This document shows positions 17,596-31,853 of a stretch of 53,504 bases of DNA, in pieces; within the stretch, counting starts at the first letter, position 1, and every line of letters starts with the position of its first letter. A program made the position numbers and the translations under genes. Source of the DNA: a virus; IMG/VR virus record IMGVR_UViG_3300032883_000088, one strand, 5' to 3'. The notes beneath the pieces were generated by a model. It was given only the letters and a program-made list of their open reading frames with translations. It ran no database searches and was not told where the DNA came from.

Positions 17596-18072
17596 TTACG
17601 CTTCGTTTTCATTGCACACCTTCTCCAAGCGCAGGAAGTACCGCCCACGCACTCGGTCTGTCCGCACAATCCGCAGACCCAGCCGCTGCGCTACCGCAAT
17701 CGACCGCGCATTCTGTGGTGCGATCCACGCAGAGATCACGTCCGCGCCCAGTTCCGTTTCCGCGATCCGCATCGCTATTCCCGCCCACGCGCGCCCGTAG
17801 CCCCATCCGCGGTATTCCGGCTGCACGATCTCCCGGCACACCCACACATTCTTTCCCCTCTCCGCGCGGGACGCTTGGAGTTCGCAGTACCCAGACACCC
17901 CAGTAACGCCCGAAAACACGATCGCCCGCGTGCGGTGCGCCGCCCACGAGACAACCTGCTCGGCTGTCAAGGGAAACTTGGCCACGGGGTCCAGCAGGCT
18001 GAGTTCGGCCGGCGTGCGGACCCAGCTTGCGATGGTCGCAGCGTCGTCAGGTTGGAAACGGCGGTAGGTCAT
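17596..18072 (-). CDS. GNAT-family N-acetyltransferase (158 aa)
   Basis: QPEYRGWGYGRAW acetyl-CoA-binding motif, GNAT-sized; ATG 18072 coincides with +1 of promoter 18079..18107. Confidence 0.8.
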   Translation of the reverse strand: MTYRRFQPDDAATIASWVRTPAELSLLDPVAKFPLTAEQVVSWAAHRTRAIVFSGVTGVSGYCELQASRAERGKNVWVCREIVQPEYRGWGYGRAWAGIAMRIAETELGADVISAWIAPQNARSIAVAQRLGLRIVRTDRVRGRYFLRLEKVCNENEA

Positions 18073-18078
18073 ACCCCC

Positions 18079-18107
18079 AGCATACCACATTCCGAGTGCA
18101 CTGTCAA
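18079..18107 (-). promoter_or_regulatory. Sigma70-type promoter TTGACA-17 bp-(TGg)TATGCT; ATG 18072 is 6 nt after the -10 (leaderless GNAT mRNA)
   Basis: Minus strand ggcTTGACAgtgcactcggaatgtggTATGCTgggggtATG. Confidence 0.6.
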
Positions 18108-18324
18108 GCCGGCCGAGAAGGGATTCCGCGTGAAGTACTAGTGCGCGTATTGAAGTTGCGAGAGGAGCAAGGGGTAGTAAATGCTATTTAACATTCTAAA
18201 GCACGCGCGGAAGGTGGGGGCGGGGTTGGGAACAACGCGAGGGGCTATTGCTCTTCTTCGGTCCGATAACTGGGGCCGATGGGGGGTCCGCTAATCTCGC
18301 CCTGCGCACGCTTGAATATTGCGT

Positions 18325-18352
18325 ATTATACGAACGTTAGCTAACATGCGAA
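18325..18352 (-). promoter_or_regulatory. Promoter candidate TTCGCA-16 bp-TATAAT
   Basis: Minus strand TTCGCAtgttagctaacgttcgTATAAT in the AT-richer core of the 18091..18596 gap. Confidence 0.35.
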
Positions 18353-18420
18353 CACTATGCGATCTGTGCGCGCGCGACACTATCGTACTTTGCGCGCCCC
18401 GGGCGGCACAGATGTCCGAT

Positions 18421-18439
18421 AAAAATTAGGCTAGCCTAA
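18421..18439 (-). terminator. Second intrinsic-terminator-like hairpin: 14-bp perfect palindrome ttaggctagcctaa followed by T5 on the minus strand
   Basis: Palindrome 18426..18439; A5 at 18421..18425 on the plus strand. Confidence 0.45.
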
Positions 18440-18440
18440 C

Positions 18441-18470
18441 AAAAAAGGCAGGGACCGCTAAGTCCCTACC
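18441..18470 (-). terminator. Rho-independent terminator ending the leftward early operon: GGUAGGGAC-UUAGCG-GUCCCUGCC-UUUUUU
   Basis: 9-bp stem (one U-G wobble, only on the minus strand), 6-nt loop, T6 tract; lies 127 nt downstream of the stop of 18597..18854. Confidence 0.7.
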
Positions 18471-18490
18471 TACGTAAGTCCCTACCTACG
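18459..18490. repeat. Tandem direct repeat 2 x 16 bp (taagtccctacctacg) plus partial third copy; duplicates the 5' arm of the terminator
   Basis: 18459..18474 = 18475..18490 exactly. Confidence 0.9.
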
Positions 18491-18596
18491 TAAGCCCCCA
18501 CTTATCGAACCCTAGATCGTCTTGAACCCCATCCCATTGCACCGACCCCTCTTGCCGCGTTCGGCTCCGCTTAGAGTAGCACGGACCTAGATCGCG

Positions 18597-18854
18597 TTAT
18601 CGACCATAAACCTTGCGATTGCACCCCGTACATCGGTACGTCTGAGTACACTCGCTTGACCACCGTACGCCCTTTGCGTTTTCGTCGGTCGCTTCCGTTC
18701 GGCTCGCAAGGCATTGTGGGCATAGCAGCTTCCCAAGGTAACTAAATGCCGCATATTCATGGGCTAGGATCGTTCCCCGCACCGCTGCCACTTGTGCTGC
18801 GGACAACGAACCTCCCACGTGCGTTCTGGGTCGTTTGTTCTCTGCAATCTTCAT
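18597..18854 (-). CDS. Zinc-ribbon protein (85 aa)
   Basis: CPQC ... CTGC. Confidence 0.5.
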   Translation of the reverse strand: MKIAENKRPRTHVGGSLSAAQVAAVRGTILAHEYAAFSYLGKLLCPQCLASRTEATDENAKGVRWSSECTQTYRCTGCNRKVYGR

Positions 18855-19019
18855 CGTTTAGTTCCCTTTGTAAAGATGAGGGGCGGGTTGCGGTTCGTCA
18901 CTCCGCTTCCCGCCCCCGGGGGGGTAGCCGCCCGCGTTCTCGCGTTGCGTAAGGGGGGTCGCATCGCGTCCGCCGAGCGGCTAGTGTCGCGGGTGGGAGT
19001 CGTCACCCGCGTTGCAGCC

Positions 19020-19247
19020 CTACCTTTGCGACCTATAGTCTCCCCCTGATTCGGGTCCGCTTTGGATCAAGTGCAATGTCCCATCCGGTTCGATAACCCC
19101 CCGCACCCCCATCACTTCAACGGATTTCCCCTTACTACGTTGCTGCACGGTCAACGTAAATCCCCCATTCTTCGCTTGTGGTCCGCCCGCGAGCTTAGTC
19201 TTCCGCCCGTCGATTGTCGCTTCAATCCACCAATTACGCATTGCCAT
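19020..19247 (-). CDS. Hypothetical protein (about 75 aa)
   Basis: The track ORF 19020..19496 overlaps the upstream gene; AAGGGGG precedes the ATG cluster 19250/19247/19241. Confidence 0.45.
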   Translation of the reverse strand: MAMRNWWIEATIDGRKTKLAGGPQAKNGGFTLTVQQRSKGKSVEVMGVRGVIEPDGTLHLIQSGPESGGDYRSQR

Positions 19248-19578
19248 CATTTCCCCCTTCCGCCCCCATCGGTTCAATCCGATACACCCTCCACCATTGC
19301 CGACCGATAACCCACCCAACGTGTCTACATCCGTGGATGTAGTTTCCGTGGCCGACCCCGTGGGGACAAGTGTACTCACCGCGGTAACCGGGACCGACCC
19401 AGAACGATACACCTCGCCCCCTACATATTCTACAAGTCGGACCTCCGGTCGGCACAAGGTCAACGAATATCCGTTGAGCGTGTTGTCGGCCCGCACGTTC
19501 CAACAATGCCTTACGCGGGTATGGCCCTAGATTTTGGGCACAATTCCCATACTGGTCGAATGCTATGTGGTTACTCAT
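19234..19578 (-). CDS. Cys/His-rich protein carrying the FWVGPGYRGEY-CPHG-HGN-IHGC module (114 aa)
   Basis: CRICRGRG, FWVGPGYRGEYTCPHGVGHGNYIHGC; ATGA overlap with the upstream stop fixes ATG 19578; paralogous module in 30403..30876. Confidence 0.55.
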   Translation of the reverse strand: MSNHIAFDQYGNCAQNLGPYPRKALLERAGRQHAQRIFVDLVPTGGPTCRICRGRGVSFWVGPGYRGEYTCPHGVGHGNYIHGCRHVGWVIGRQWWRVYRIEPMGAEGGNDGNA

Positions 19579-19769
19579 TGTTCTCCCTTTCCCGGCAGCG
19601 GGCAAACCACGCCGCACACTATACACACCATTTCGACCACCACAGACCCGTTCGACCCTATCTGCCACTTCCACGGTGTCATCGGTCGCAAGTCGTCGAT
19701 GGTCAAGTCGTGCCGCTGCGAGCATAACGGACACGTTGTCAAACACGTCAATTCGGGCGTGGTACGCAT
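19575..19769 (-). CDS. Zinc-ribbon protein (64 aa)
   Basis: CPLC ... CIVCG. Confidence 0.5.
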   Translation of the reverse strand: MRTTPELTCLTTCPLCSQRHDLTIDDLRPMTPWKWQIGSNGSVVVEMVCIVCGVVCPLPGKGEQ

Positions 19770-19773
19770 AGCC

Positions 19774-19998
19774 TCACCGCGGTTCTAACCAAACTCGCCA
19801 TTGTTGCGGCACGTCCCGGAGGGGGATTCGCTTGCACATTGCAAGGTACTTTCGGCTTATCCCTTGCGTGCAACACGACTCCGGGTGTCCGGGAACGCAC
19901 GCGGCCCGCCCCTCATAATCCGAACCGCCCCTGTGCGACCCGGGACCCCAAACGACTAAGTATCCGATCGGTGGGTCGTGATAATATCGCGTGTTCAT
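19774..19998 (-). CDS. Hypothetical protein (74 aa)
   Basis: ATGA overlap with the upstream stop fixes ATG 19998. Confidence 0.45.
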   Translation of the reverse strand: MNTRYYHDPPIGYLVVWGPGSHRGGSDYEGRAACVPGHPESCCTQGISRKYLAMCKRIPLRDVPQQWRVWLEPR

Positions 19999-20477
19999 CG
20001 GGGATATCGCTCCACTAATGTCTTGCCCAACGCACGGCAAGTGTGGCAACGATCATCGTCCATGCCAGCCGTAGACTTACCACACCCAATGCACCGATCA
20101 TGTAGTAGGATCGTATCCGGTCCCACAAACCGAGCCTCCCCTCCGTCGAACATCCGATAATACACAGTGTGTTGGTTCCCCTCTCTCCGCACGTAAACTG
20201 CGAGATTATCGAACCATCGCTGCGTGATTCGCCTTTTGCGGTTAAAGCCATCTATAGAGGGCGTGTCAATAACCGACTCGCATTCGACGCCGAGAATCGC
20301 AACCGGCTCCGCCCACACACCACGGGTGATACCATCGGTGTCGGTGGGTCGCTGCCAGTATCCACTAGCATCGGTGACTGTGCAACCCCCCCACCGCTCG
20401 ACACACCGGGCGACGCACGTGTCGATAAGCTGCTCCAATTCGGGTGTTTCCCTTGGAATCGTGAATTGTACGAACAT
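19995..20477 (-). CDS. Hypothetical protein with a C-terminal zinc ribbon (160 aa)
   Basis: CIGCG ... CHTC; AGGGGAAAAACG-ATG start region. Confidence 0.55.
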   Translation of the reverse strand: MFVQFTIPRETPELEQLIDTCVARCVERWGGCTVTDASGYWQRPTDTDGITRGVWAEPVAILGVECESVIDTPSIDGFNRKRRITQRWFDNLAVYVRREGNQHTVYYRMFDGGEARFVGPDTILLHDRCIGCGKSTAGMDDDRCHTCRALGKTLVERYPR

Positions 20478-20545
20478 CGTTTTTCCCCTAACCGCGAACT
20501 TAGGTGCATACGCACACCCAAACGTACACGGTCCACAATGCGATC

Positions 20546-21034
20546 TTAACGTACTCCCGAACCATCGTCAACTCCCGTCGCAAGTCGAGACGGCAACTTG
20601 CGAAACTCGGTGACACGTACTTGGAATTGCCCTTCCCCTGTAATCCCATACGCGAATCCCGGTCGCAATTCCGCCTTGAGTTGTTCGATCGTCAACGCCG
20701 ATTCACCCGGCTGTCCAAGTCCCGACGAATCACAGAACAGTTCCCGCACGACTTCCCATCCATCGGCAAGCGGATAATTCCCCGGCCCACCAGACGTATC
20801 GTACTCCCCCACCTTGGGGAAGGGAAACGGTGGATAGCCGTCAATTTCCGCCTGCGTCTCGATAAGGTATGGTTCGGTCGTCGTATCTGCATCCATCGCC
20901 TCCGCCTCTGCCAGCAACGCCTTTGCGTGCCGCTCCGCTTCCTTCTCACATGCGTAGCACACTTCGCACCTCCACTTCCCATTCGGTAACACCCGAACGT
21001 CTAAACACCCACATTTTTCGCAACGGCCAAACAT
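20546..21034 (-). CDS. Hypothetical protein with an N-terminal zinc ribbon (162 aa)
   Basis: CEKCGC ... CEVCYAC; ATG 21034 lies 2 nt after the upstream stop; the track start 21361 runs through the non-coding gap. Confidence 0.55.
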   Translation of the reverse strand: MFGRCEKCGCLDVRVLPNGKWRCEVCYACEKEAERHAKALLAEAEAMDADTTTEPYLIETQAEIDGYPPFPFPKVGEYDTSGGPGNYPLADGWEVVRELFCDSSGLGQPGESALTIEQLKAELRPGFAYGITGEGQFQVRVTEFRKLPSRLATGVDDGSGVR

Positions 21035-21036
21035 CG

Positions 21037-21222
21037 TCAACCCCCCGTTGTTAGCTTCTCTGCCGAGTACTGCCCGCAGTTCGGGCATATACCCCATACC
21101 CAGTTCCAACCGAGCACGCTGCACTCTCGGCAGTAATGCGTACAGTCTACCGCCTCCCCGCGTAAGATCGCGGCGTCCACTTCCGTAACCGATACGAATG
21201 TAGGCACATTCTCGACCTTCAT
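21037..21222 (-). CDS. Zinc-ribbon protein (61 aa)
   Basis: CRECS ... CPNCG; ATG 21222 preceded by AAGGGGGAAGCG. Confidence 0.5.
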   Translation of the reverse strand: MKVENVPTFVSVTEVDAAILRGEAVDCTHYCRECSVLGWNWVWGICPNCGQYSAEKLTTGG

Positions 21223-21567
21223 CGCTTCCCCCTTTCCATCTATCAGACCTCCCACCGCACGCCCGGTACGGAAGCAGCCGTATGGTAGGCCAACCCGCTT
21301 TCGCCGTAGCTTGTTCTAGAATTACTACGGCAATAGAATGGTTCGCTGTTACCGGACGCACGGTGGGAGGTCCGAGAACGGTTGCCTGTGCAACCCCCTA
21401 CAATCTAGCGGGTATATTCTCGGACGCCCAAAGGGGGAATAGCCGTCGGCATTTTTACGCCTATGTTATCGACTCTTTCGCACGGTTGGCGATTCTTGGA
21501 AACTTCCCATCCGTGTCTCCGTTTTTCCCCACTACGTACGGGGTTGTCGGTCCCACCGCCTCCCCGC
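21223..21567 (-). ncRNA. Structured untranslated RNA region (long 5' leader or stand-alone ncRNA) downstream of promoter 21574..21602
   Basis: No convincing ORF; own promoter; 23-bp helix and several local hairpins (see findings). Confidence 0.4.
21246..21372 (-). other. 23-bp RNA helix (arms 21350..21372 and 21246..21268) closing an 81-nt insert
   Basis: 20 Watson-Crick pairs plus 3 pairs that are G-U on the minus-strand RNA but C-A on the plus strand. Confidence 0.6.
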
Positions 21568-21573
21568 ACCACA

Positions 21574-21602
21574 AGCATACCACACGCAGCCCGCGTTGTC
21601 AA
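21574..21602 (-). promoter_or_regulatory. Sigma70-type promoter TTGACA-17 bp-(TGg)TATGCT overlapping the stop codon of 21599..21802
   Basis: Minus strand tTTGACAacgcgggctgcgtgtggTATGCT. Confidence 0.55.
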
Positions 21603-21802
21603 ACTAAATCTCCGTAAATTCCCTCCCATCCGCAATCGTCGTCCTGACAATGTGCGGAATCATAGTCCGCCGGTTGAAAATCCCCAATCGGCTCCCAGCC
21701 TAAGTCGCCGACAATTCCAATCTGAGTTTGTTTCGCGGGAGTAAACGTGCATAGCGAATCCACGTTGACCGACCCGCGACATTCTGGACACTTAGTTCCC
21801 AT
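21599..21802 (-). CDS. Zinc-ribbon protein (67 aa)
   Basis: CPEC ... ; AGGGGG 9 nt upstream of the ATG; promoter 21828..21856. Confidence 0.5.
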   Translation of the reverse strand: MGTKCPECRGSVNVDSLCTFTPAKQTQIGIVGDLGWEPIGDFQPADYDSAHCQDDDCGWEGIYGDLV

Positions 21803-21827
21803 CGTTCATTACCCCCTAACTACCCCT

Positions 21828-21856
21828 AGTCTACGCTGTGGATTCCCGGTTGTCAA
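21828..21856 (-). promoter_or_regulatory. Sigma70-type promoter TTGACA-17 bp-TAGACT
   Basis: Minus strand cgcTTGACAaccgggaatccacagcgTAGACTagg. Confidence 0.55.
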
Positions 21857-21883
21857 GCGGTCGGAGAGGATTTTTTTTGTGCG

Positions 21884-21913
21884 TTGACCGACCCCCACTA
21901 CGCGGCATATAAT
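21884..21913 (+). promoter_or_regulatory. Plus-strand (antisense-oriented) promoter TTGACC-18 bp-TATAAT, back to back with 21828..21856
   Basis: Plus strand gcgTTGACCgacccccactacgcggcaTATAATtgc; T8 tract 21871..21878 between the two -35 boxes. Confidence 0.45.
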
Positions 21914-21958
21914 TGCCGACCGTAGGGGGCGGCTTGATCGGACTAGACCTGTTCGCAG

Positions 21959-21992
21959 GTTATAGGACTATCGCCGCCCCGCGTTATAGGAC
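21959..21992. repeat. Two 10-bp direct repeats gttataggac (21959..21968, 21983..21992); minus strand GTCCTATAAC
   Basis: Exact copies 24 bp apart; related to the CCTATAAT -10 boxes at 5571, 9338, 26321 and 46186. Confidence 0.8.
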
Positions 21993-22045
21993 GACCCCCG
22001 CCCCATCCCGCTCCGCCTTTTGTGCAATTTAACATTCCCCCTCTT

Positions 22046-22063
22046 CTCGCCTTGCGGCGACCT
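22046..22063 (-). other. Conserved hairpin motif copy: (minus strand) AGGTCGCC-GCAA-GGCGAG
   Basis: 18-mer ctcgccttgcggcgacct identical to 25304..25321; 5-bp stem, GCAA tetraloop on the minus strand. Confidence 0.7.
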
Positions 22064-22106
22064 GCCTGTTGTTCATCATCCCGCGAAGCGGGCATAGGCA
22101 AAGGTC

Positions 22107-22146
22107 GGCCCCCCGGCCCACGGAGGAAGCCGCGAACCGGGGGGCC
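22107..22146. other. GC-rich stem-loop (10-bp stem ggccccccgg/ccggggggcc, 20-nt loop) 20 nt downstream of the stop at 22167
   Basis: Perfect inverted repeat; no U tract on either strand, so terminator function is uncertain. Confidence 0.5.
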
Positions 22147-22166
22147 TTGGAGGGGGAAGGAAGCTC

Positions 22167-22952
22167 TTAGTCCGCGGCCCGTCGCAGGTCGTCGGCGTAC
22201 TGTCGCTGATAGTGGATCGCGTACTGCCCCGGCGGAAACGTCACGTCCTGGTGTTCCGGGTGCGTCATCGTCCAGGGGTTATCCGCAACCACGATCGGCC
22301 CATCAAGCACGCCGGCGTTCGGCGGCGTAAGGACTCGTACCTCCGAGGTCAAAACGAGGTGTCGAGCACCGATTCCCGACCCGACCGCGATCTGGATGTG
22401 GCTCTCTCCGCCCCCGACCGTGTGCATTGGTCCCATCGCCTTGAATGCGGCATCGGACAACAGGACTACGCCCACGTCGCCTTGCCATAGGATGTCTGTA
22501 TCCGGCGTCATTGCCCCTGCCTTCCGCGGCTCGCGTCCGGGCTTGTCGTCCGCCTTGAACTCATTCGCCCGCATCCGCATGGCGGCGTACACGTTGCCGG
22601 CACCGTTCGCGTTCTCAAACGCAGCATCCGTCTCCTCCCGCGTCATCGGAGGTTCGGCAGACCGGGTAGGGCGACGTTTGGTCCCCGTCAACAATGGCAT
22701 CTCGGTTTTCAATTCGCTCATCTTTTGGTCCTTTCCCGCGGTATCGCGGCTGGGTCTTTTTTCCCGCTGCGTAGCGGGGTAAACAAAATCTCTCCAAATC
22801 CTGTGTGCTCCGGGTCGAAAGGAAATAGAGGTAGCCCATCTTCCCCATGGAATACCGGTGCAAGGATATGTACCGAAACACGCCTCTGCTATCTTTTTCC
22901 TTACCCCAACAACACGTAATCTACAATCCGTATTCAAACTCATCCTTACCAT
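22167..22952 (-). CDS. Hypothetical protein (261 aa; 184 aa if ATG 22721 is the true start)
   Basis: GGAGGGAGG just upstream of ATG 22952, with promoter 22969..22996. But the first 77 codons are AT-richer, rich in AGA/AGG/ATA/TTA and contain two hairpins. ATG 22721 has AAGGA upstream. Confidence 0.5.
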   Translation of the reverse strand: MVRMSLNTDCRLRVVGVRKKIAEACFGTYPCTGIPWGRWATSISFRPGAHRIWRDFVYPATQREKRPSRDTAGKDQKMSELKTEMPLLTGTKRRPTRSAEPPMTREETDAAFENANGAGNVYAAMRMRANEFKADDKPGREPRKAGAMTPDTDILWQGDVGVVLLSDAAFKAMGPMHTVGGGESHIQIAVGSGIGARHLVLTSEVRVLTPPNAGVLDGPIVVADNPWTMTHPEHQDVTFPPGQYAIHYQRQYADDLRRAAD

Positions 22953-22968
22953 GTCCTCCCTCCGTTCG

Positions 22969-22996
22969 ATTATATCCGCTCATCGCGGCGAGTCAA
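22969..22996 (-). promoter_or_regulatory. Sigma70-type promoter TTGACT-16 bp-TATAAT overlapping the stop of 22970..23179
   Basis: Minus strand agTTGACTcgccgcgatgagcggaTATAATcga. Confidence 0.55.
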
Positions 22997-23179
22997 CTTA
23001 TCCCGCCGTTTTTGCTCTCGTCTCCTGCCCATCCAGTGTATGAATCCCTGAATCACCTGCGGCAGGGTCGCATCGTACCACGTACGCCGACACGTTGAAC
23101 AGTACCAGAATCCGCATCCCGTCGTCGGGTCGTAACCCTCCCGGTAGAGTCTGTGAGATAACCAGCACCAAAGTATCAT
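22970..23179 (-). CDS. Hypothetical Cys/Trp-rich protein (69 aa)
   Basis: ATGA overlap with the upstream stop. Confidence 0.45.
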   Translation of the reverse strand: MILWCWLSHRLYREGYDPTTGCGFWYCSTCRRTWYDATLPQVIQGFIHWMGRRREQKRRDKLTRRDERI

Positions 23180-24123
23180 GTTCGCCCGATCTCTTGCAAC
23201 TTCGGGTTCCCTACCAGGTAAGTCTTCGCATCAGAGCAGGTAGCCGTAGTGGGTGGGACCAGTAGGTTAAAGACCCGCCCAGTAGGACAAGTACAAAGCA
23301 GGACTCTGGCCTCCAGGTCGGGTACATCGCATAGGGCTTCATAGCACCCTCCGTCTACATCGTTCCGCCGCTTGTCGATCACCTTCGCCTTACTCGCGGC
23401 TAGGTACTTCTCCCATCCATATCGCTCGATGCGAATGCGGCGACGTTCGAGATTATCTTCGTCGTGAATCTGCTCCATCGTCTGCGTCTCAGGTCGCATG
23501 ATGAGTTGCTCGTCCACAAAGTGACCTTCAATCGCGTAAATCTTCTCGCCATCCGGCCACTCCAGTACAGCCCCGTCCGCATTATGCCATTGCAACACGG
23601 ACGCCTGATCGCGGTACACGATCTTGCATGGTCGCTCGATTACGAACGCGACCTTCTCGAACGTTGCCAACGCGAACGCATTCCGTGCGAACTCCTTAAG
23701 GAACTGAATCGGGTGCGGCTTCCCCGCTTCCCCGGGCTTGGCGACGTACTTGCAGTAGTAATCATCCGCGGCGAGCCAATTCCCATCGGACCACGGCGTA
23801 CTCAGTGCGGCCTGGGCTTCCCGCTTTGTGAACTTCGCTGCGGCCGCATCCGTGCTCTTGATCTTGTCCGCGAACTCGGCGGCCTTGCGATAGTAGTTTT
23901 GCAACCCCTCGCAGAACACAATCTCCGGCCCCACATCTCGTTCGGCCGGCAACCTTGCATCCATCGGTCGCTTCAATTCCGCGGATTCATAGAGGGCCAG
24001 TACCGCTCGCCCCGCGGCCTCCCGCACCATCGGTGCCGTTTCCAGCAATACCTTGGTCCAGTCCTCCACGACCTCCGCGATCTGCCGTTCTTCTTGCTTC
24101 GGATCAACCTTCGTCTCAGCCAC
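23176..24123 (-). CDS. Hypothetical protein; C-terminal half resembles the family I recall as DUF6745 (about 315 aa)
   Basis: GTG 24123 with GGAGGA 7 nt upstream (track start 24225 overlaps the previous gene by about 110 nt); WHNADGAVLEWPDGEKIYAIEGHFV ... EDNLERRRIRIERYGWEKYL. Confidence 0.5.
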   Translation of the reverse strand: MAETKVDPKQEERQIAEVVEDWTKVLLETAPMVREAAGRAVLALYESAELKRPMDARLPAERDVGPEIVFCEGLQNYYRKAAEFADKIKSTDAAAAKFTKREAQAALSTPWSDGNWLAADDYYCKYVAKPGEAGKPHPIQFLKEFARNAFALATFEKVAFVIERPCKIVYRDQASVLQWHNADGAVLEWPDGEKIYAIEGHFVDEQLIMRPETQTMEQIHDEDNLERRRIRIERYGWEKYLAASKAKVIDKRRNDVDGGCYEALCDVPDLEARVLLCTCPTGRVFNLLVPPTTATCSDAKTYLVGNPKLQEIGRT

Positions 24124-24391
24124 GTTCGTTTCCTCCCGCGTTTGCATATTCCCGAATGGTATTCTTGATCTGCTCCAATGGCGTATCCGAGTACCACATT
24201 TCGGACAGTTTGAACAGTTGCTCACCAGTCAAACCTGTGTAGCCATCTGGAATCCCCCCAAGGTCCACGGAAAACGTCATCGACCCCCCACGTTCTTTAT
24301 AGGCTCGACAAGCAACCCGTTCTTGCCTACTTTCCTCTTCGGTCATTTGATTGGCCCACTCAAGACAGTTCCTTTTCTGTTCTGCATTCAT
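24116..24391 (-). CDS. Hypothetical protein (91 aa), leaderless start
   Basis: ATG 24391 lies 6 nt after the -10 of promoter 24398..24426; MNAEQKRNCLEWANQMTEEE... Confidence 0.5.
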   Translation of the reverse strand: MNAEQKRNCLEWANQMTEEESRQERVACRAYKERGGSMTFSVDLGGIPDGYTGLTGEQLFKLSEMWYSDTPLEQIKNTIREYANAGGNERG

Positions 24392-24397
24392 ACCAAC

Positions 24398-24426
24398 AGC
24401 ATACCCCCAGATCGCGGTCGAGTCAA
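24398..24426 (-). promoter_or_regulatory. Sigma70-type promoter TTGACT-17 bp-TATGCT, then 6 nt, then ATG 24391
   Basis: Minus strand cTTGACTcgaccgcgatctgggggTATGCTgttggtATG. Confidence 0.55.
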
Positions 24427-24638
24427 GTCTTTTTCCGAGAATTAGACCGTGCACGGCAATTTTGGCACTCACATGAACCGAGGGTCACAACCTCAGTAAG
24501 GCGAAGGTGATCGACAAGTCGCCACTGCATTAGAGAGTGGAGTAGTAATCGGTGGGACCAAAAGATCGGGTGCTCTACCAGTTGCTGGAACGACTTCCTG
24601 CGCGCTTTTTCGTAGTCAGACAAATACAACGTCTTCAT
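24423..24638 (-). CDS. Hypothetical protein (71 aa), leaderless start
   Basis: ATG 24638 lies 6 nt after the -10 of promoter 24645..24673; the track start 24860 overlaps the upstream gene. Confidence 0.5.
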   Translation of the reverse strand: MKTLYLSDYEKARRKSFQQLVEHPIFWSHRLLLHSLMQWRLVDHLRLTEVVTLGSCECQNCRARSNSRKKT

Positions 24639-24644
24639 GCCGAT

Positions 24645-24673
24645 ACTATATCCTCGAACTACGGCTGAGGCAA
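24645..24673 (-). promoter_or_regulatory. Sigma70-type promoter TTGCCT-17 bp-TATAGT, then 6 nt, then ATG 24638
   Basis: Minus strand cTTGCCTcagccgtagttcgaggaTATAGTatcggcATG. Confidence 0.5.
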
Positions 24674-24689
24674 GCCGTTTGCAAAGAAA

Positions 24690-24733
24690 ATCTCCCCCAT
24701 TGTCGCCTGGCGGCGAACTGCAACAGGGGAGAT
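24690..24733 (-). other. Nested stem-loop: outer 8-bp stem (atctcccc/ggggagat) enclosing a variant of the conserved hairpin (tcgcc-tggc-ggcga, 24703..24716)
   Basis: Inverted repeats read directly from the sequence in the 116-bp gap 24639..24754. Confidence 0.55.
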
Positions 24734-24754
24734 CGTTCTTACCGGACCTTCGGA

Positions 24755-25297
24755 TTAGTTGGTCGGCAATAGGGTTAGGAACACGTCCCACTCGGTCGTA
24801 CCCGTGGTCGTGCTTCCACTTACGGCAAGCTGAGACCGCAATGTGCAGCCCGTAGTCCACACCGCGTACGCCGGCACGATGATGCGAACCACGTCTGTAT
24901 CCTGCGTATCGCCATCCGTGTCCACGCTCGCCACAACGCTGTTGAACGACTCGCTCGCGGCCCCGTCGCCGAGTTCGAGTTTGAAGTCGTGGTCCGGTGC
25001 GCCCCCCGTACGTAGAGACCGCATTACGGTCTTGATCTGGACAATCCGGTACTTCTGACTCAGCACCGGCTTGCTGCCGGCCACGTTCACGATCGCCGCG
25101 GCGCTGTCGTACGCCTGATCCGCGACCGCCTTATGCTTGAGGACTACCATAATCGGCGAACCGTAGATTTTGTCCTCGTCGGCGCTGTACGCGACCGTGC
25201 TCTTCGTGCTCACCGCATCTTGCACCATGACTCCCAATGTGGCCTCCTGGTCTACATGAACTGCGATGTGTGCTACGCTTTCATAGTCTCTTGCCAT
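24755..25297 (-). CDS. Hypothetical acidic, beta-rich protein (180 aa), probably highly expressed
   Basis: ATG preceded by GAGGAAAGT and by the conserved GCAA hairpin; no domain recognised. Confidence 0.6.
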   Translation of the reverse strand: MARDYESVAHIAVHVDQEATLGVMVQDAVSTKSTVAYSADEDKIYGSPIMVVLKHKAVADQAYDSAAAIVNVAGSKPVLSQKYRIVQIKTVMRSLRTGGAPDHDFKLELGDGAASESFNSVVASVDTDGDTQDTDVVRIIVPAYAVWTTGCTLRSQLAVSGSTTTGTTEWDVFLTLLPTN

Positions 25298-25303
25298 ACT
25301 TTC

Positions 25304-25339
25304 CTCGCCTTGCGGCGACCTCCTTTGCGGCTTCGCCGC
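25304..25339 (-). other. Two consecutive hairpins in the 49-bp gap: conserved AGGTCGCC-GCAA-GGCGAG (25304..25321) and GCGGC-GAA-GCCGC (25327..25339)
   Basis: Stems read directly; the first ends 7 nt before ATG 25297. Confidence 0.65.
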
Positions 25340-25346
25340 GGTTTAT

Positions 25347-25562
25347 TTACTGCTTAGCTTCCAACTTCGCCACGGCTACAGTTAAGGACGCAACAGTTGC
25401 GTCCAGTTTATCCACCTGCGTCGTCAATCGGGTTATCACGTCCTTCAATCCGTCCACCCGAATTGCTTCCGTCAAGTTTCGACTCGTTACGGCCATAGCC
25501 ACGCTTGTAACGGCCACACCGATCAGTGACCCTACTACAGCCCCGGTCCAGTTTGTCTTCAC
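25347..25562 (-). CDS. Small membrane protein: N-terminal TM helix plus coiled-coil tail (71 aa)
   Basis: GAVVGSLIGVAVTSVAMAV, then a heptad-like LKDVITRLTTQVDKLDATVASLTVAVAKLEAKQ; GTG start. Confidence 0.5.
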   Translation of the reverse strand: MKTNWTGAVVGSLIGVAVTSVAMAVTSRNLTEAIRVDGLKDVITRLTTQVDKLDATVASLTVAVAKLEAKQ

Positions 25563-25571
25563 GACTCATTC

Positions 25572-26285
25572 CTACGGAAGGGGAACCAAGGTCAGGTACG
25601 TCACGCGAACCTTGAGGCTTTCCCCGGCCCCGCCGATTGTCCCGTGGGCAACCCCGCTCTCACCGCACGCCCATACCCGAATGTCCTCCGGGATAGTGAG
25701 TACCTTCCAATTCGGAATCTTGTCGATGGTCAACCCACTCGCAAGGCCCGTGGTCATCCCGTACTTGCTGGCAAGTGCGGCGGTCCCTACCCCTATGTTT
25801 GTACCCCCATTGGCCCCCGTCACCGTGGTTATCAGCCTGAGTTGCACTCCGAGGATCACGGCCCCAATCGGAACTACGTCCGACAAGTTGAACGACGCCG
25901 CGGCCGGGTCAAGGCTCACTGTGTCGTCAAGAATCTCCATCTCCTGCGTTAGCGTCGCCAATTCGTCCAGGTTGACATCTTCCAACTTGGTGTCGGTGTA
26001 CGCCTCCGCCGCCGCCTCGGCTGCATCGGCCTTGGCAGTCGCATCTAGTGCTGCCGCCGCCTCTGCTGCTGCCTGCGCTGCGGCTGCCTTGCTCGTGGCG
26101 TCATCCGCTGCCGCGCCCGCTACCGCTTGTCCAACTTCGTAAAGCATTTCAGGGTCCTCCAATACTTCGATTACGCCGGTTCTGATCGCGGCATGAACAT
26201 CGCCGCTGTGTTCGTACGGCAGATATGCCTGTCGTACGTCCTTGTGTGCAATGTCTGCCGAGTGAATAGCCACATCTAAAGTCAC
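25572..26285 (-). CDS. Hypothetical protein with an Ala-rich central helix and a beta-rich C-terminus (237 aa)
   Basis: First gene downstream of the leftward promoter 26321..26349; GTG start, exact start uncertain. Confidence 0.55.
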   Translation of the reverse strand: MTLDVAIHSADIAHKDVRQAYLPYEHSGDVHAAIRTGVIEVLEDPEMLYEVGQAVAGAAADDATSKAAAAQAAAEAAAALDATAKADAAEAAAEAYTDTKLEDVNLDELATLTQEMEILDDTVSLDPAAASFNLSDVVPIGAVILGVQLRLITTVTGANGGTNIGVGTAALASKYGMTTGLASGLTIDKIPNWKVLTIPEDIRVWACGESGVAHGTIGGAGESLKVRVTYLTLVPLP

Positions 26286-26320
26286 CCTTTACGTGGGTTC
26301 GGACTTCAATTCGCCAACCT

Positions 26321-26349
26321 ATTATAGGTCCGTTTGTGGATAGAATCAA
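26321..26349 (-). promoter_or_regulatory. Leftward promoter TTGATT-17 bp-TATAAT (GACCTATAAT)
   Basis: Minus strand gcTTGATTctatccacaaacggaccTATAATagg; back to back with 26355..26382. Confidence 0.6.
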
Positions 26350-26354
26350 GCCCC

Positions 26355-26382
26355 TTGACTTCCCTCCGCGTTTGGGTATAGT
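26355..26382 (+). promoter_or_regulatory. Rightward promoter TTGACT-16 bp-TATAGT, then 6 nt, then ATG 26389 (leaderless polymerase mRNA)
   Basis: Plus strand ccTTGACTtccctccgcgtttgggTATAGTctgttgATG. Confidence 0.6.
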
Positions 26383-26388
26383 CTGTTG

Positions 26389-28926
26389 ATGGGGGTTGAA
26401 CATGCAACAGAACCTTTGGCTCCCGGATACTCTACGCGGTTGGTGCCGATGGTACGATACGGAAGCGGGAAGCACGATACGGCCTTGCTCGTGGTAGGAG
26501 AAGCCCCCGGAAAAGACGAGGACGAAAAGGGGGAACCATTCGTAGGTAAATCGGGAAAGCTATTACGGGGAGCGTATCTCGATCATTGGGAGTTTGGAAA
26601 CTATGCGTCCTTGTATCTTACCAATTCGGTACGATGCCGTCCCCCGGACAATCGCACTCCTCGGCCATCGGAGATTAAGGCCCATCATCAATTGTTGGAG
26701 TTGGATATCCGTGGGTTGGCAGAGAAGTATTCGAGTATTGTTGTGCTTGCCGTAGGAGCAACAGCGTGCAAAGCGTTTGGGATGAAATCCTTATCCGCTG
26801 CGTTCAAGCAACAAGGTGGGGAAGTCCTCTTCGGGAATGTCATAGTCCGCTTTTTCGCCACGTGGCACCCTGCTTTCGTCTTACGCGATCCGTCAGTTGG
26901 AACGTCCTTAGAGTCGCATTTGGCCTGTCTGATGCGGCATTTGCGTGGTTCAACGGAGCAACCCGTCGTTACCTCAAAAAGCAATTGGCTCGTCGCGCCC
27001 GCGCACGTGCCGCACAAAGGAGTAGTGTGTCTTGACATCGAAACCTATGGGTGCATTTCTGGGGTGGAGCAAAGCCAGTTTCACCCTGCGAAAGCAGTTT
27101 ATTGGGACGGCGTCCGGCCGGCTAACGCAATTATATCGTGCGCCCTCTCCTGGGATGGCGGCTCCGCTTTCTACAATCTGGGACTACAACATCATCGGCG
27201 CGCGTTGTGCGCGGTCTTGAGGCAGGTACAGCATGAACAATGTGTTCTCCTACTCCAAAATGCAACATTTGATCTCACGTTCCTACGGGCATTCCTCCCT
27301 GCTTGCCGTCCATATCTGGAGCTACCACTTCGCCTGGCGGACCTTATGGTATCCAGCTACCTTGTTGATGAGGCTCGCCCAGAGCGGTCACTCAAAGCCC
27401 TCGCCCCCCTTCTGATGGGACAGCAAGGATTGTACAAAGACGAATGGCGGTCGTTGAACTTTACCGGCCCGGACGACCCGGAACTTGCACGTTACAACAT
27501 AGCAGATACGGAGCGTACGTATGGATGCAATAAGATTTGTCGTGAGTCCTACCCCAGCATGTACGGAATTGAAACGGGCAAAGGATCGGAGTATTCAGAT
27601 CGTTGGTATTCCGATCTCCTGCACCTCGTCACATGGATGTCTGAGGCCGGTGTACTTTTGGATGTACCGGCACTCACGCTTTTGGACCGACACCTTTCCG
27701 TTCGTAAGTCTCGCATCGAACGATTGGCGAAGTCCACCCTCGATCTAACGCTTGAGGGCAAAGGCTCAGACAAATCCAAACGCGGCGCGGTCTCCGCTGC
27801 GGTTAAAAGCATTCCGTGCGCCGATGACGGAGAACTCGTGAGCGATCGTATCAAACTCACCAAAACGGGAAAGATGCCTTACGATGAAGAAACTCGTAAT
27901 CTGCTCGTACCATTACTCCGAACGAATGGCGATCGTCGCACTCTTCGCGCGTTACATGTTATTGGGTTGCACCAAAATGTGGCTAAGGTATTGTCCACCT
28001 ACACTGGCCCGATGCTTCGCGGTCGCAAGCGCGGGGCGACCTGGGACAACTCGCCCCGCGTGATTGACGGCCGGGTGTACCCAACGTGGTATCCGGTCCC
28101 CCGCGAGTTCGGGGCGGGTGAATCAGGCGGCACCAAGCAAGGTCGCCTCTCCGCCAAGTCCCCATCCGTCCCCACATTCCCGCCAGCGCTCAAGAAACTC
28201 ATCCAGGTGGACGCTTGGGTCGATTACTCCGGTATCGAACTCCGTACAGCAGCATTGATGAGCGGGGACCCGGTGATGATGTCCGAGCTTTCCGGCCCGG
28301 ACGGCGACCTGCACGCGCGGACGGCCCGGCTGATCTTCGGCGACGATATCGTGAACCACCCCCTGTTCCGCGCGGTATACCGCCAAGCTGGAAAAAAAAC
28401 CAACTTTCTCATGCTCTACTTAGGTGGCGCGGAGAAACTGCGGCACACGCTTTTAACCAAGGTCGGACTTGACTATCCGATCGAGAAGTGCTATGCTGCC
28501 ATAGATGGATTCTGGTCAACGTACCACGTACTGCGCGCGTTTATCGACTCCGCGGTCGCCTCCGTGCGCAAAAAGGGCTTCTATGAACTTCCGCTCACCG
28601 GCCAATCGCGCCTTTTCGCTCGCGCGAACCCACCGATCAATGAGGTTGCATCCTTTCTCTTCCAGCCTATTGCCGCTAACATTACTCTTTCTGCCCAGTA
28701 TCATCTTTGGGCAACCGCGAAACGAGAGAACGTGGCGATGACCTGCCCCGTGAACATCTACGACGCCATCGGCATCGTGCTCCACCCCCAAGAACGCCGT
28801 CGGTACAGTATGAAGCGCGCATCGAAGCTCATGGTGGACATCCTTCCGAACCCCCCGTATTACCGCGATCTGTGCGCCCACCTCGGCCGCACGCTACCAT
28901 TGGCTTACGAGGTAACGAATGGATAG
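26389..28926 (+). CDS. Family-A DNA polymerase with N-terminal UDG-family-4-like domain and 3'-5' exonuclease domain (845 aa)
   Basis: UDG-like: GEAPGKDEDEKGEPFVGKSGKLL ... HPAFVLRDPS. Exo: VCLDIETYG, QNATFDLTFL. Pol motif A VDYSGIELR, motif B RQAGKKTNFLMLYLGG, motif C region VNIYDAI. Confidence 0.9.
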   Translation: MGVEHATEPLAPGYSTRLVPMVRYGSGKHDTALLVVGEAPGKDEDEKGEPFVGKSGKLLRGAYLDHWEFGNYASLYLTNSVRCRPPDNRTPRPSEIKAHHQLLELDIRGLAEKYSSIVVLAVGATACKAFGMKSLSAAFKQQGGEVLFGNVIVRFFATWHPAFVLRDPSVGTSLESHLACLMRHLRGSTEQPVVTSKSNWLVAPAHVPHKGVVCLDIETYGCISGVEQSQFHPAKAVYWDGVRPANAIISCALSWDGGSAFYNLGLQHHRRALCAVLRQVQHEQCVLLLQNATFDLTFLRAFLPACRPYLELPLRLADLMVSSYLVDEARPERSLKALAPLLMGQQGLYKDEWRSLNFTGPDDPELARYNIADTERTYGCNKICRESYPSMYGIETGKGSEYSDRWYSDLLHLVTWMSEAGVLLDVPALTLLDRHLSVRKSRIERLAKSTLDLTLEGKGSDKSKRGAVSAAVKSIPCADDGELVSDRIKLTKTGKMPYDEETRNLLVPLLRTNGDRRTLRALHVIGLHQNVAKVLSTYTGPMLRGRKRGATWDNSPRVIDGRVYPTWYPVPREFGAGESGGTKQGRLSAKSPSVPTFPPALKKLIQVDAWVDYSGIELRTAALMSGDPVMMSELSGPDGDLHARTARLIFGDDIVNHPLFRAVYRQAGKKTNFLMLYLGGAEKLRHTLLTKVGLDYPIEKCYAAIDGFWSTYHVLRAFIDSAVASVRKKGFYELPLTGQSRLFARANPPINEVASFLFQPIAANITLSAQYHLWATAKRENVAMTCPVNIYDAIGIVLHPQERRRYSMKRASKLMVDILPNPPYYRDLCAHLGRTLPLAYEVTNG
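28469..28497 (+). promoter_or_regulatory. Promoter-like element inside the polymerase gene: TTGACT-17 bp-(TGc)TATGCT
   Basis: Plus strand acTTGACTatccgatcgagaagtgcTATGCTgccatagATG. Confidence 0.35.
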
Positions 28927-31611: not shown

Positions 31612-31808
31612 GTGGGATATTCCACCACAGATTGGGAATCATCATAGCCTACTGCCTTTGCCCGGCCTCCGAGCTTCCCGTTGCGGTCAGGAAGGCGGAG
31701 ACCGTCGGCGAGTTCTGTGTCGCCTTGGGCCTACCGGCGGTGGAGCCGGTCGATCTCGCCGCGTTGAAGGAGCGCTTCGCGCGCCTCGGCGACGCGGCGA
31801 ATGGGTAA
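31608..31808 (+). CDS. Hypothetical protein (66 aa) bracketed by the 34-bp repeats
   Basis: ATGA overlap with the nuclease stop. Confidence 0.45.
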   Translation: MSGIFHHRLGIIIAYCLCPASELPVAVRKAETVGEFCVALGLPAVEPVDLAALKERFARLGDAANG

Positions 31809-31819
31809 GTGGACACGCA

Positions 31820-31853
31820 TGGAACTTGAATATCCAAACTTCCTACATGGAGT
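31820..31853. repeat. 34-bp direct repeat, copy 2
   Basis: See 31547..31580; ends in the ATG (31847) of the next gene. Confidence 0.9.

Follow-up and report, generated by a model that had tools for sequence, protein, structure and literature searches.

Start codons placed six nucleotides after sigma70-type promoters suggest leaderless expression of the DNA polymerase, GNAT and other first genes in a phage

Introduction

In a stretch of DNA of 53,504 nucleotides from an uncultivated phage, analysed here as a whole and referred to as the window, four ATG codons stand exactly six nucleotides downstream of a sigma70-like -10 hexamer, and two of them open the genes for a DNA polymerase and a GNAT acetyltransferase. 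This raises the question of whether these genes are expressed from mRNAs that begin with the start codon itself, and whether such expression is the rule for promoter-proximal genes of this phage.

Results

Four promoter-ATG junctions and their frequency

The four junctions are formed by the following elements:
26355-26382, plus strand: polymerase promoter; -35 TTGACT at 26355-26360, 16-nt spacer, -10 TATAGT at 26377-26382
26389-28926, plus strand: gene for a fusion of a family 4 UDG and a family A DNA polymerase, 845 aa (Pfam UDG, DNA_pol_A)
24645-24673, minus strand: promoter P2 of gene #2; TTGCCT at 24673-24668, 17 nt, TATAGT at 24650-24645
24423-24638, minus strand: gene #2, a 71-aa ORFan whose TGA stop falls within the P3 -35
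24398-24426, minus strand: promoter P3 of gene #3; TTGACT at 24426-24421, 17 nt, TATGCT at 24403-24398
24116-24391, minus strand: gene #3, 91 aa, MNAEQ...YANAGGNERG
18079-18107, minus strand: GNAT promoter; TTGACA at 18107-18102, 17 nt, TATGCT at 18084-18079
17596-18072, minus strand: gene for a GNAT (RimJ/RimL-type) acetyltransferase, 158 aa, with Pfam Acetyltransf_3 aligning from residue 2

Direct reading confirmed all four arrangements described in the earlier note. The distance d between the -10 and the ATG is 6 nt in each, filled by ctgttg before ATG 26389 (plus strand) and, on the minus strand, by atcggc before ATG 24638, gttggt before ATG 24391 and gggggt before ATG 18072. The -35 hexamers match TTGACA at 4-6 of 6 positions at all four sites, and the GNAT promoter also has an extended -10, (TG)g, before TATGCT. 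The spacers of the four sites are mutually unrelated, and therefore the sites are not copies of one cassette.

The frequency of this geometry was evaluated by scoring hexamer pairs with 9 of 12 matches, a loose criterion, as sigma70-like sites on both strands of the 53.5-kb window. This gave 37 promoter-like sites, compared with 24.1 ± 5.3 in dinucleotide shuffles. At 4 of the 37 an ATG was located at exactly d=6, each time beginning an ORF 60 aa long or longer; the corresponding means in 300 shuffles were 0.28 for an ATG and 0.053 for an ATG with an ORF, with a maximum of 2. Every other distance from 0 to 40 had at most two ATGs at the head of an ORF of this minimum length, counting both strands of the window. 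Thus, the enrichment at 6 nt that the earlier note had suggested looking for in silico was indeed present (4 seen versus 0.05-0.28 expected). In the pooled close relatives (80.5 kb) we counted 97 promoter-like sites versus 31.8 in shuffles, with 6, 11 and 5 ATGs at d=5, 6 and 7, respectively, and an expectation of 0.31 at d=6; these pooled counts include orthologous sites and do not represent independent events. A second peak in the relatives, at d=19, corresponds to short leaders with a Shine-Dalgarno (SD) sequence.

Conservation of the junctions in related phages

In relatives recovered from metagenomes, with 61-89% protein identity, the -35, the -10 and the distance of 5-6 nt are kept, whereas the bases of the spacer and of the 6-nt stretch have changed. 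The geometry is retained in four relatives at the polymerase (and in one more with a different first gene), in three at GNAT and in four at gene #3.

At the polymerase, the ATG in L014, L050 and L006 follows TTGACT-16/17-TATAGT/CATAAT at d=6, and in L017 the order is TTGACT-16-TATGAT-5 nt-GTG; the spacers and 6-mers of these promoters all differ. In L015 the ATG at d=6 belongs to another gene, and the polymerase comes next by overlap. Close homologues of the fusion protein are 842-846 aa long, and the N-terminus M-[GE]-VE[HY]A.EPLA is kept among the relatives. The polymerase promoter is situated within a 103-bp divergent region that has no space for a longer leader and also contains a second, back-to-back promoter:
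26321-26349, minus strand: divergent promoter TTGATT-17-TATAAT, driving the leftward gene 25572-26273/26285

The ATTATAGG and TCAA blocks of this promoter are invariant in six relatives. The leftward gene is not leaderless, since it has a leader of about 30-40 nt and an AAGGGTG SD-like site. The pattern is absent from L001-L004, which are more distantly related (polymerase identity of 53-64%) and whose polymerase has a different, non-leaderless context.

The GNAT promoter is the most conserved upstream block (CTTGACA...GGAATGTGGTA..CT) in L046, L048 and L049, in which the geometry is TTGACA-17-TATGCT/TAGACT-6 nt-ATG. The neighbourhood of this gene includes two further elements:
18446-18471, minus strand: strong intrinsic terminator, an 11-bp stem followed by TTTTTTGTT, which ends the unit located before the noncoding region that precedes GNAT and is kept in L048 and L049
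17361-17396, minus strand: possible, imperfect fifth case, TTGACT-17-TAGAAC-gggt-ATG 17363

In this fifth case the distance is just 4 nt and the -10 lacks its final T. The same gene is preceded by TTGACT-17-TAGAAT-4 nt-ATG in L048 and L049 and by an SD-led leader in L046, and in L015 a homologue of it is the first gene, at d=6, in front of the polymerase.

Promoters P2 and P3 belong to a region with two additional features:
24684-24740, minus strand: intrinsic terminator, a long GC-rich hairpin with UUUUCUUU after it, situated beyond the stop of gene 24755-25297, directly upstream of P2
23176-24123, minus strand: DUF6745 gene, 315 aa, GTG start, Pfam PF20530; second cistron of the P3 unit

The terminator upstream of P2 folds at -35.1 kcal/mol (z = -3.98; none of 200 shuffles folds as well), and a hairpin with a T-run corresponds to it in L014, L049, L015, L052, L053 and L054. 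Near-identical copies of P3 followed by gtt[ag]gt-ATG were found in L049, L015, L052 and L053, and analogous arrangements with d=5-6 precede DUF6745 in L051, L017 and L054. Gene #3 lies in the best coding frame (+11.5), and its orthologue in L049 has 77 aa with identical N- and C-termini; it is shortened to 44 aa in L052 and to 36 aa in L053. Its 3' end bears the SD of the DUF6745 gene (GGGAGG at 24137-24132), and the DUF6745 start overlaps the gene #3 stop (GTGGCTGA), a junction common to six relatives. The length of 315 aa for the DUF6745 protein is also that of the JGI call, and the possible extension 24124-24225 is not coding in frame. There is no terminator between gene #2 and gene #3, so that gene #3 could also be translated from transcripts reading through from P2. 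A G-rich run lies 12-14 nt upstream of the gene #3 ATG (GGGGG; GGAGGAGAG in L049).

A search of 1.84 billion representative proteins and of the related loci gave no homologue of gene #2, and its codon log-likelihood was -1.3, which is still the best of the six frames. Because it lacks a homologue and has a weak coding signal, gene #2 (ATG 24638) is the weakest of the four candidate cases.

Start codons, Shine-Dalgarno sequences and leadered genes

The ORF list sets the starts of gene #2, gene #3 and GNAT further upstream, at 24860, 24472 and 18090, as the earlier note had said, and its three proposed corrections fared differently. Start 18090 is excluded by an in-frame TAG inside the -10 (TAGACT), 12 nt upstream of the GNAT ATG, in L048 and L049, and the JGI call is likewise 158 aa. 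Start 24472 is disfavoured by comparison with L049, in which 303 nt upstream of the gene #3 orthologue contain no in-frame start and the N-terminus MNAEQ is conserved. As gene #2 is an ORFan with a weak coding signal, its correction from 24860 is only plausible. At the polymerase, an in-frame TGA within the -35 shuts the upstream frame in the window. In L014 and L050 there is no other in-frame polymerase start upstream, with an in-frame stop at -33, and an in-frame stop is located at -9 before the polymerase start of L017. Where the in-frame stop lies inside the promoter, as in several relatives, the adjacent ATG is the sole possible start.

None of the four sites has a GGAG, GAGG or AGGA core 4-11 nt upstream of the ATG, in agreement with the earlier claim that they lack an SD; of 48 other genes in the window, 19-32 carry such a core. 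The GAGGA of gene #2, at 12-13 nt from the ATG, is just beyond the usual SD range. A weakly structured 5' end, another trait of leaderless mRNAs, did not stand out: the minimum free energies predicted for the first 24, 36 and 48 nt fell inside the distribution seen for 46 other genes, with folding no weaker than theirs. The claim that internal genes of the same operons use SD sites or stop-start overlaps was borne out at the DUF6745 gene and at the metallophosphatase-like gene at 28919, the cistron downstream of the polymerase, which follows it via an ordinary SD or a stop-start overlap.

However, the systematic use of leaderless initiation that had been proposed was not found, as leaders precede at least five further promoter-proximal genes. 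SD motifs are present at four of these (26273/26285, 22952, 16046 and 36074), and the gene at 46171 has a leader of about 7 nt with at most a weak SD. Leaderless initiation would be one of two expression formats in the clade, beside SD-led short leaders, and it is no general rule. The pattern also says little about the host, contrary to what had been expected of it: L001-L004 do not have it, and a host search gave no identification.

Discussion

Leaderless transcripts and alternative explanations

We consider it likely that the four sites are real promoters for a host sigma factor that give leaderless, SD-free mRNAs, and in silico this reading is well supported for the polymerase, GNAT and gene #3. 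According to it, the host housekeeping sigma factor (sigma70/sigmaA type) would recognise the four promoters, and the first transcribed base would be the A of the start codon or lie no more than about 1 nt from it. The mRNAs would thus have neither a 5' UTR nor an SD, and a ribosome carrying the initiator tRNA would bind the 5'-terminal AUG directly, by the known leaderless pathway. Later cistrons would be translated via ordinary SD sites or via overlaps of stop and start codons. From sequence features we infer where transcription starts, that host RNA polymerase is used and how translation begins. The terminators or the divergent promoter region directly upstream make read-through from upstream unlikely.

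An alternative, which we regard as unlikely, is that the promoters are real and translation proceeds mainly from longer or slightly leadered transcripts, arising by read-through or from starts a few nucleotides upstream, with the help of a weak G-rich pseudo-SD or translational coupling; the coincidence of +1 and ATG would then be secondary. The G-rich runs just 5' of the -10s (GAGGA at gene #2, GGGGG at gene #3 and its L049 counterpart), the missing terminator between genes #2 and #3, and the relatives with d=4 or d=5, which indicate that the distance is not absolutely fixed, all speak for it. However, L014, L050 and L006 are examples in which the polymerase promoter has not kept the G-rich runs, and their spacings of 12-14 nt or 1 nt fall outside the working SD range. 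Moreover, P2, the GNAT region and the polymerase promoter each have a terminator or the divergent region directly before them, and the sharp mode at d=6 would be left without explanation.

It is less probable still that the hexamers merely resemble TTGACA and TATAAT and are bound by a regulator of phage or host origin, or serve as promoters for a different polymerase or sigma factor. The part GGAATGTGG of the GNAT spacer is invariant in four phages, beyond what a promoter needs, and most proteins of the window have no known function, so that a phage-encoded transcription factor is conceivable. Nevertheless, both consensus hexamers are matched at a spacing of 16-17 bp, the spacers vary at the polymerase promoter, P2 and P3, and like sites precede SD-led genes at normal leader distances; in addition, promoter-like sites are 1.5 to 3 times as frequent as in shuffles. 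The remaining explanation, four fortuitous hexamer pairs beside ATGs, has hardly any likelihood. The matching criterion of 9 of 12 was loose and 24 sites are expected at this size and composition, yet four junctions were observed when far fewer than one was expected, no shuffle exceeded two, and the geometry is kept in relatives despite diverged flanks. Chance is therefore effectively refuted by the shuffles and the comparative data.

Comparison with known systems

The mechanism that we favour, initiation on a leaderless mRNA, is already known from lambda cI, phiYS40, Actinobacteria and Deinococcus, and the phage is a new example of it. In TA-led bacterial genes (Actinobacteria, Deinococcus-Thermus and others) the -10 adjoins the ORF (PMC3160421, PMC4007540, PMC4633059, PMC12340547). 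At all four sites the first T of the -10 is 12 nt upstream of the start codon, which agrees with the TA-led definition of PMC3160421. The phage shares with these genes a TANNNT whose first T is about 12 nt from the start, the missing SD, an AUG (occasionally GUG) expected at the 5' end of the transcript, and the coexistence of leaderless and SD-led genes. It differs in being a phage, with about 57% GC, in having this arrangement at only a minority of its promoters, and in the strong TTGACA-like -35 and E. coli-like -10 (TATAGT/TATGCT) of the four sites.

The leaderless promoters of Thermus thermophilus phage phiYS40 reportedly have only a -10 and no -35. PMC3594737 describes most middle and late transcripts of phiYS40 as leaderless (Sevostyanova et al. 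2007, via PMC3594737) and a shift in the host IF2/IF3 balance caused by this phage. The present phage resembles it in being of the lytic type and in its predicted use of leaderless mRNAs for several genes, not just for a single regulator. Unlike in phiYS40, a -35 is present at all four sites, only 4-5 units of a replication or early-type region are involved, and there is no known link to initiation factors; as at least five promoter-proximal genes are leadered as well, we did not assign the phage to this class. No sequence relationship to cultured phages was detected.

The lambda cI transcript from PRM is also leaderless (PMC10491246), and other single leaderless regulator genes of phages are known. 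The start at the A of the AUG, predicted for the present phage, is common to both cases, and the polymerase promoter stands back-to-back with a divergent one, as PRM does with PR. However, none of the genes concerned is a repressor: they encode a replicase and an acetyltransferase or are small ORFs, and the sites are several instead of one. No repressor or integrase was identified among the proteins examined, nor was an operator or lysogeny module identified, and the lambda type, in which the leaderless gene encodes the immunity repressor of a divergent, operator-controlled switch, was rejected.

SD-containing E. coli mRNAs can carry 5'-terminal AUGs (5'-uAUG) (PMC4965119). The DUF6745 unit is similar in L015, L051, L052, L053 and L017, where it begins with a 5'-terminal AUG whose short first ORF, of 17-44 codons, runs into the SD-led main gene. 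In the window, by contrast, the first ORF encodes a 91-aa protein with conserved ends and is no mini-ORF, and any regulatory role is putative.

What the phage adds to these systems is a constant junction of promoter and ATG behind which the first cistron varies, being exchanged, shortened or lost. At the polymerase promoter, such an exchange is seen in L015. The first ORFs of the DUF6745 unit have 91, 77, 44, 43, 39, 36, 25 or 17 codons, depending on the phage. This variable ORF always ends on the SD-led DUF6745 start, which suggests that ribosomes loaded at the AUG could couple the expression of DUF6745. We tentatively propose, as a possibility that has less in its favour than leaderless initiation itself, that the junction may be a fixed 'expression socket' with the AUG 5-6 nt after the -10, and that the first ORF of the DUF6745 unit may act as a leaderless 'loading cistron'. 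If this is true, it would be something beyond a mere leaderless gene, with expression of the second gene, DUF6745, coupled to a 5'-terminal AUG. Unrelated first ORFs also occupy the position after the terminator: at the place of P2, L014 has TTGACG-17-TATAGT-cgggc-ATG, followed by a 61-aa ORF unrelated to gene #2 with an in-frame stop at -9.

A fixed distance between promoter and start codon

Re-reading of the sequence at four genes, for which the earlier note had described a -10 hexamer exactly 6 nt from the ATG and hence leaderless mRNAs (without a 5' UTR), recovered the arrangement at every one of them.

Promoter-start junctions of the four genes, read directly (ATG position, strand, gene, junction)
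26389, plus strand, polymerase: TTGACT-16-TATAGT-ctgttg-ATG
24638, minus strand, gene #2: TTGCCT-17-TATAGT-atcggc-ATG
24391, minus strand, gene #3: TTGACT-17-TATGCT-gttggt-ATG
18072, minus strand, GNAT: TTGACA-17-TATGCT-gggggt-ATG

We enumerated sigma70-like pairs on both strands of the whole window (at least 4/6 matches per hexamer and at least 9/12 in total, a 16-18-nt spacer, and a -10 with A as its second and T as its sixth base) and used 300 dinucleotide-preserving shuffles as the control. The window holds 37 such sites, compared with 24.1 ± 5.3 in the shuffles, and at four of them an ATG stands at a distance (d) of 6 nt from the -10 hexamer, each opening an ORF of 71-845 aa. The enrichment at 6 nt over shuffled sequence was thereby borne out: four ATGs were observed where the shuffle mean was 0.28 (0.053 for ATGs with an ORF of at least 60 aa, and never more than two), and any other single distance between 0 and 40 nt had at most two ATGs with an ORF of at least 60 aa. 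Since the four spacers are unrelated in sequence, the sites are not copies of one element. A chance origin of the four is effectively excluded.

The four ATGs had also been said to lack a Shine-Dalgarno (SD) sequence, and indeed no GGAG, GAGG or AGGA core was present 4-11 nt upstream of any of them; gene #2 has a GAGGA 12-13 nt upstream of its ATG, and a canonical core in range was found at 19-32 of the 48 other predicted genes of the window. We consider it probable, for the four sites overall, that the host sigma70/sigmaA holoenzyme transcribes these units starting at the A of the ATG and that the first cistron is translated by leaderless initiation, the downstream cistrons presumably relying on SD sites or coupling. 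The four sites fit the published signature of bacterial leaderless genes, a TANNNT that begins about 12 nt ahead of the start codon (PMC3160421). Our confidence in the leaderless reading is higher than this for the polymerase, GNAT and gene #3; for gene #2 it is lower. The predicted folding of the 5' ends revealed no clear difference between the four putative leaderless mRNAs and other genes. As the chief alternative, translation could proceed mainly from read-through or slightly leadered transcripts by means of G-rich pseudo-SD elements, which we regard as unlikely. Still less probable is that the hexamers serve something other than housekeeping-sigma promoter function. Among phages, leaderless transcripts are known from lambda cI (PMC10491246) and, according to the summary in PMC3594737, on a large scale from the Thermus phage phiYS40.

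Conservation of the junctions in related phages

Relatives (loci and phages from metagenome assemblies, numbered L001-L054) were drawn from IMG/VR, JGI, ENA and Logan assemblies.

Junctions in relatives (identities are those of the named protein)
L014, polymerase, 82%: TTGACT-16-TATAGT-cttgcg-ATG
L050, polymerase, 82%: TTGACT-16-CATAAT-cccacg-ATG
L006, polymerase, 75%: TTGACT-17-TATAGT-gccata-ATG
L017, polymerase, 74%: TTGACT-16-TATGAT-acgtt-GTG
L015/L016, polymerase, 83%: TTGACT-17-TATGAT-ccatca-ATG, then a different 148-aa gene
L046, GNAT, 79%: TTGACA-17-TATGCT-ggtggt-ATG
L048, GNAT, 68%: TTGACA-17-TAGACT-gagggt-ATG
L049, GNAT, 61%: TTGACA-17-TAGACT-gggggt-ATG
L051, ahead of DUF6745: TTGACG-17-TATACT-cctggc-ATG, 25 codons
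L017 and L054, ahead of DUF6745: TTGACC-17-TATGGT-atgac-ATG, 43 and 39 codons

The polymerase promoter lies within a 103-bp divergent region, its -35 being 5 bp from that of a leftward promoter (TTGATT-17-TATAAT, 26349-26321, minus strand), and the TGA within its TTGACT hexamer terminates the polymerase reading frame upstream. In L015/L016 the polymerase start overlaps the 148-aa gene and its N-terminus differs. At the polymerase junction, then, the hexamers and the 5-6-nt distance are conserved; spacer and 6-mer differ between phages, and in L015/L016 so does the first gene itself. Inside the polymerase gene, about 420 nt ahead of the next gene (28919), another promoter-like sequence, TTGACT-17-(TG)-TATGCT (28469-28497, plus strand), is kept in L014, L015, L017 and L051; it may serve the downstream replication genes as an internal promoter, or may be conserved merely as coding sequence. 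The ATG at d = 7 after it was judged incidental, its out-of-frame ORF not being kept in L014 or L017.

The GNAT promoter stands at the end of a gene-free region of about 500 nt that starts with a strong terminator (18471-18446), and the promoter block is the best-conserved part of this region in the window, L046, L048 and L049. In L048 and L049 the -10 itself supplies an in-frame TAG, which rules out initiation at the counterpart of 18090. The correction from 18090 to 18072 made in the earlier note therefore holds; JGI's GNAT call is likewise 158 aa. The gene-free region itself is conserved (window 18108-18570, minus strand; L046 240-1058, L048 970-1420, L049 7215-7715). In addition to the terminator it holds another promoter-like site at 18352-18325 (TTCGCA-16-TATAAT), TTATCGGAC / TTAGCGGAC motifs that recur and a GAATGTTAAAT box that does not vary. 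It had no Rfam match and its consensus fold was unconvincing (-6.1 kcal/mol, 12 pairs); possible identities are an origin, an iteron region or a regulatory region.

Exchangeable first cistrons

Gene #3 overlaps the GTG start of DUF6745 at 24123, which is led by the SD GGGAGG (junction GTGGCTGA). Codon statistics assign the coding frame in 24124-24391 to gene #3 and not to an upstream extension of DUF6745, for which JGI's own call is 315 aa. In L049 the promoter of gene #3 (P3) is identical in type, with an identical gttggt, and is followed by an orthologous 77-aa protein that has the MNAEQ and IKxxIRxYANAG ends in common with gene #3. The P3 junction is also kept in L052 and L053, followed by a conserved ORF of 44 and 36 aa, respectively, and in L015, followed by a 17-codon ORF. 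L017 and L054 differ by a deletion that spans exactly the interval from the first ATG to the ATG of the next gene and leaves the geometry unchanged. The putatively leaderless first ORF of the DUF6745 unit is hypervariable (17-91 codons) and always ends on the SD-led start of DUF6745, which fits a putative ribosome-loading or coupling role of the 5'-terminal AUG.

The promoter of gene #2 (P2) is preceded by a strong terminator (-35.1 kcal/mol, z = -3.98, then UUUUCUUU) lying immediately 3' of the stop of gene 24755-25297, and the -35 of P3 contains the stop codon of gene #2. Of the four leaderless cases gene #2 is the weakest, because it had no homologue among 1.84 billion representative proteins and its codon score was -1.3, nevertheless the best of six frames. 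Among the loci compared it was found in the window alone. At the matching position after the terminator L014 has TTGACG-17-TATAGT-cgggc-ATG; the 61-aa ORF that this ATG opens is unrelated to gene #2, and a TAG in its frame lies 9 nt ahead of the ATG.

Extent of leaderless use

The close relatives, when pooled (80.5 kb), contained 97 promoter-like sites (31.8 in shuffles), with 6 ATGs at d = 5, 11 at d = 6 (where 0.31 would be expected) and 5 at d = 7, counts that take in orthologous sites and are descriptive, not of independent events. A second ATG peak, at d = 19, corresponds to an SD-led short-leader class. At least five other promoter-proximal genes of the window have leaders.

Promoter-proximal genes with leaders
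ATG 22952: TATAAT-cgaacGGAGGGAggac-ATG
ATG 16046: SD GAAGGAG
GTG 36074: SD AGGAG
26273/26285, minus strand: leftward gene, leader of about 30-40 nt
ATG 46171, minus strand: 448-aa structural-region gene, TTGAAA-17-TATAAT (46186-46214), ATG 14 nt after the -10

ATG 46171 is predicted to have a leader of just some 7 nt and, at best, a weak SD (GGGAT), an arrangement intermediate between the leaderless and SD-led formats. The distant relatives L001-L004 (53-64% polymerase identity) had no d = 6 peak and no leaderless geometry at the polymerase gene; their strong promoters, of which there are many, are followed by leaders of about 20 nt with an SD. Systematic leaderless use at promoter-proximal genes, as the earlier note had it, is therefore not borne out: the leaderless format is a trait of one subclade, in which a minority of units carry it.

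A possible fifth site is TTGACT-17-TAGAAC-gggt-ATG (17363), with a d of only 4 nt and an imperfect -10; the arrangement is common to L048 and L049, and the same gene is SD-led in L046. TTGACG-17-TAAGAT-6-GTG (20536) was rejected, as the conserved gene there (19995-20477) is in another frame. Inside a 276-aa gene (5223-6053), just upstream of a large 505-aa structural-region gene, the near-consensus promoter TTGACT-17-TATAAT (11/12 matches; 5564-5599, minus strand) is followed exactly 6 nt later by a GTG in frame with the 276-aa gene, which could mark a leaderless nested 113-aa C-terminal protein in the manner of scaffold/protease nested genes, or be chance. Downstream of another strong promoter, TTGACA-17-TGg-TATGCT (21574-21602, minus strand), there is no convincing gene for some 200 nt, just an ORF of 14 codons that has a GGAGA site, and the next gene begins at 21361. 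This stretch could represent a small RNA or a long 5' UTR.

Annotation and evolution of leaderless units

The leaderless mechanism is well established, and what we report is a useful annotation and a modest evolutionary observation, not a surprise. The start codons of four genes, the replicase included, now appear settled in a phage lineage without cultured relatives. Gene callers mis-start promoter-adjacent genes: in the relatives they chose ATGs within the -10 hexamer or further upstream, and such mis-starts around leaderless promoters are a systematic annotation artefact. Automatic mis-starts were seen at L015 2316, L048 2182 and L049 8450, where the mis-called ATG lay within the -10 or was made up from it (tATGct, or the AT of TAGAAT followed by g). 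In L015 this produced a 'DUF6745' fusion of 391 aa; in L048 and L049 the called genes were 2 codons too long. The sole non-routine aspect is evolutionary, in that the promoter-AUG junction seems to stay fixed as the first cistron is exchanged, truncated or deleted. Such a conserved junction offers a compact model for the evolution of leaderless units and for the way in which a first ORF without a leader might drive the expression of a gene coupled to it downstream.

Genome setting and host

The window is a phage-like genome of about 57% GC, in which no tRNA genes or Rfam families were found.

Main regions of the window
Both ends, minus strand: structural and packaging genes
9611-11494, minus strand: terminase large subunit
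26285 down to about 13000: leftward early-type region
From 26389: rightward replication region

The products of the replication region include a UDG-PolA fusion, a metallophosphatase-like protein, an ERCC4 nuclease, a dATP/dGTP pyrophosphohydrolase-like protein, a PD-(D/E)XK exonuclease and a Sak4-like protein. Comparison with cultured phages gave neither a cultured relative nor a host clue: there was no nucleotide match (megablast, 13 kb) and no match to the terminase (tblastn), and the only matches to the polymerase (tblastn) had at most 28% identity and came from phages of many hosts. A scan of genome contigs with the polymerase alignment returned one distant full-length relative, in a 'Clostridiales' MAG (33% identity), and no host assignment; the remaining matches were unrelated UDG genes. 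A DUF6745 scan of viral contigs gave no match.

The window brings in an environmental phage clade whose promoter-proximal genes are partly leaderless and partly SD-led, and its host must therefore translate 5'-terminal AUGs reasonably well. This hint does not pinpoint the host, because leaderless genes are known in many phyla: they are abundant in Actinobacteria and Deinococcus-Thermus (PMC4007540, PMC4633059, PMC12340547) and are estimated at 13-16% in Acidobacteria and Deltaproteobacteria (PMC3160421).

The pyrophosphohydrolase-like gene (31658-32506, plus strand; phrog_801/phrog_2252, with the L051 relative matching PF18909) adjoins the UDG-family-4/PolA fusion replicase (26389-28926, plus strand), a pairing that may reflect non-canonical nucleotide metabolism or modified DNA in the clade.
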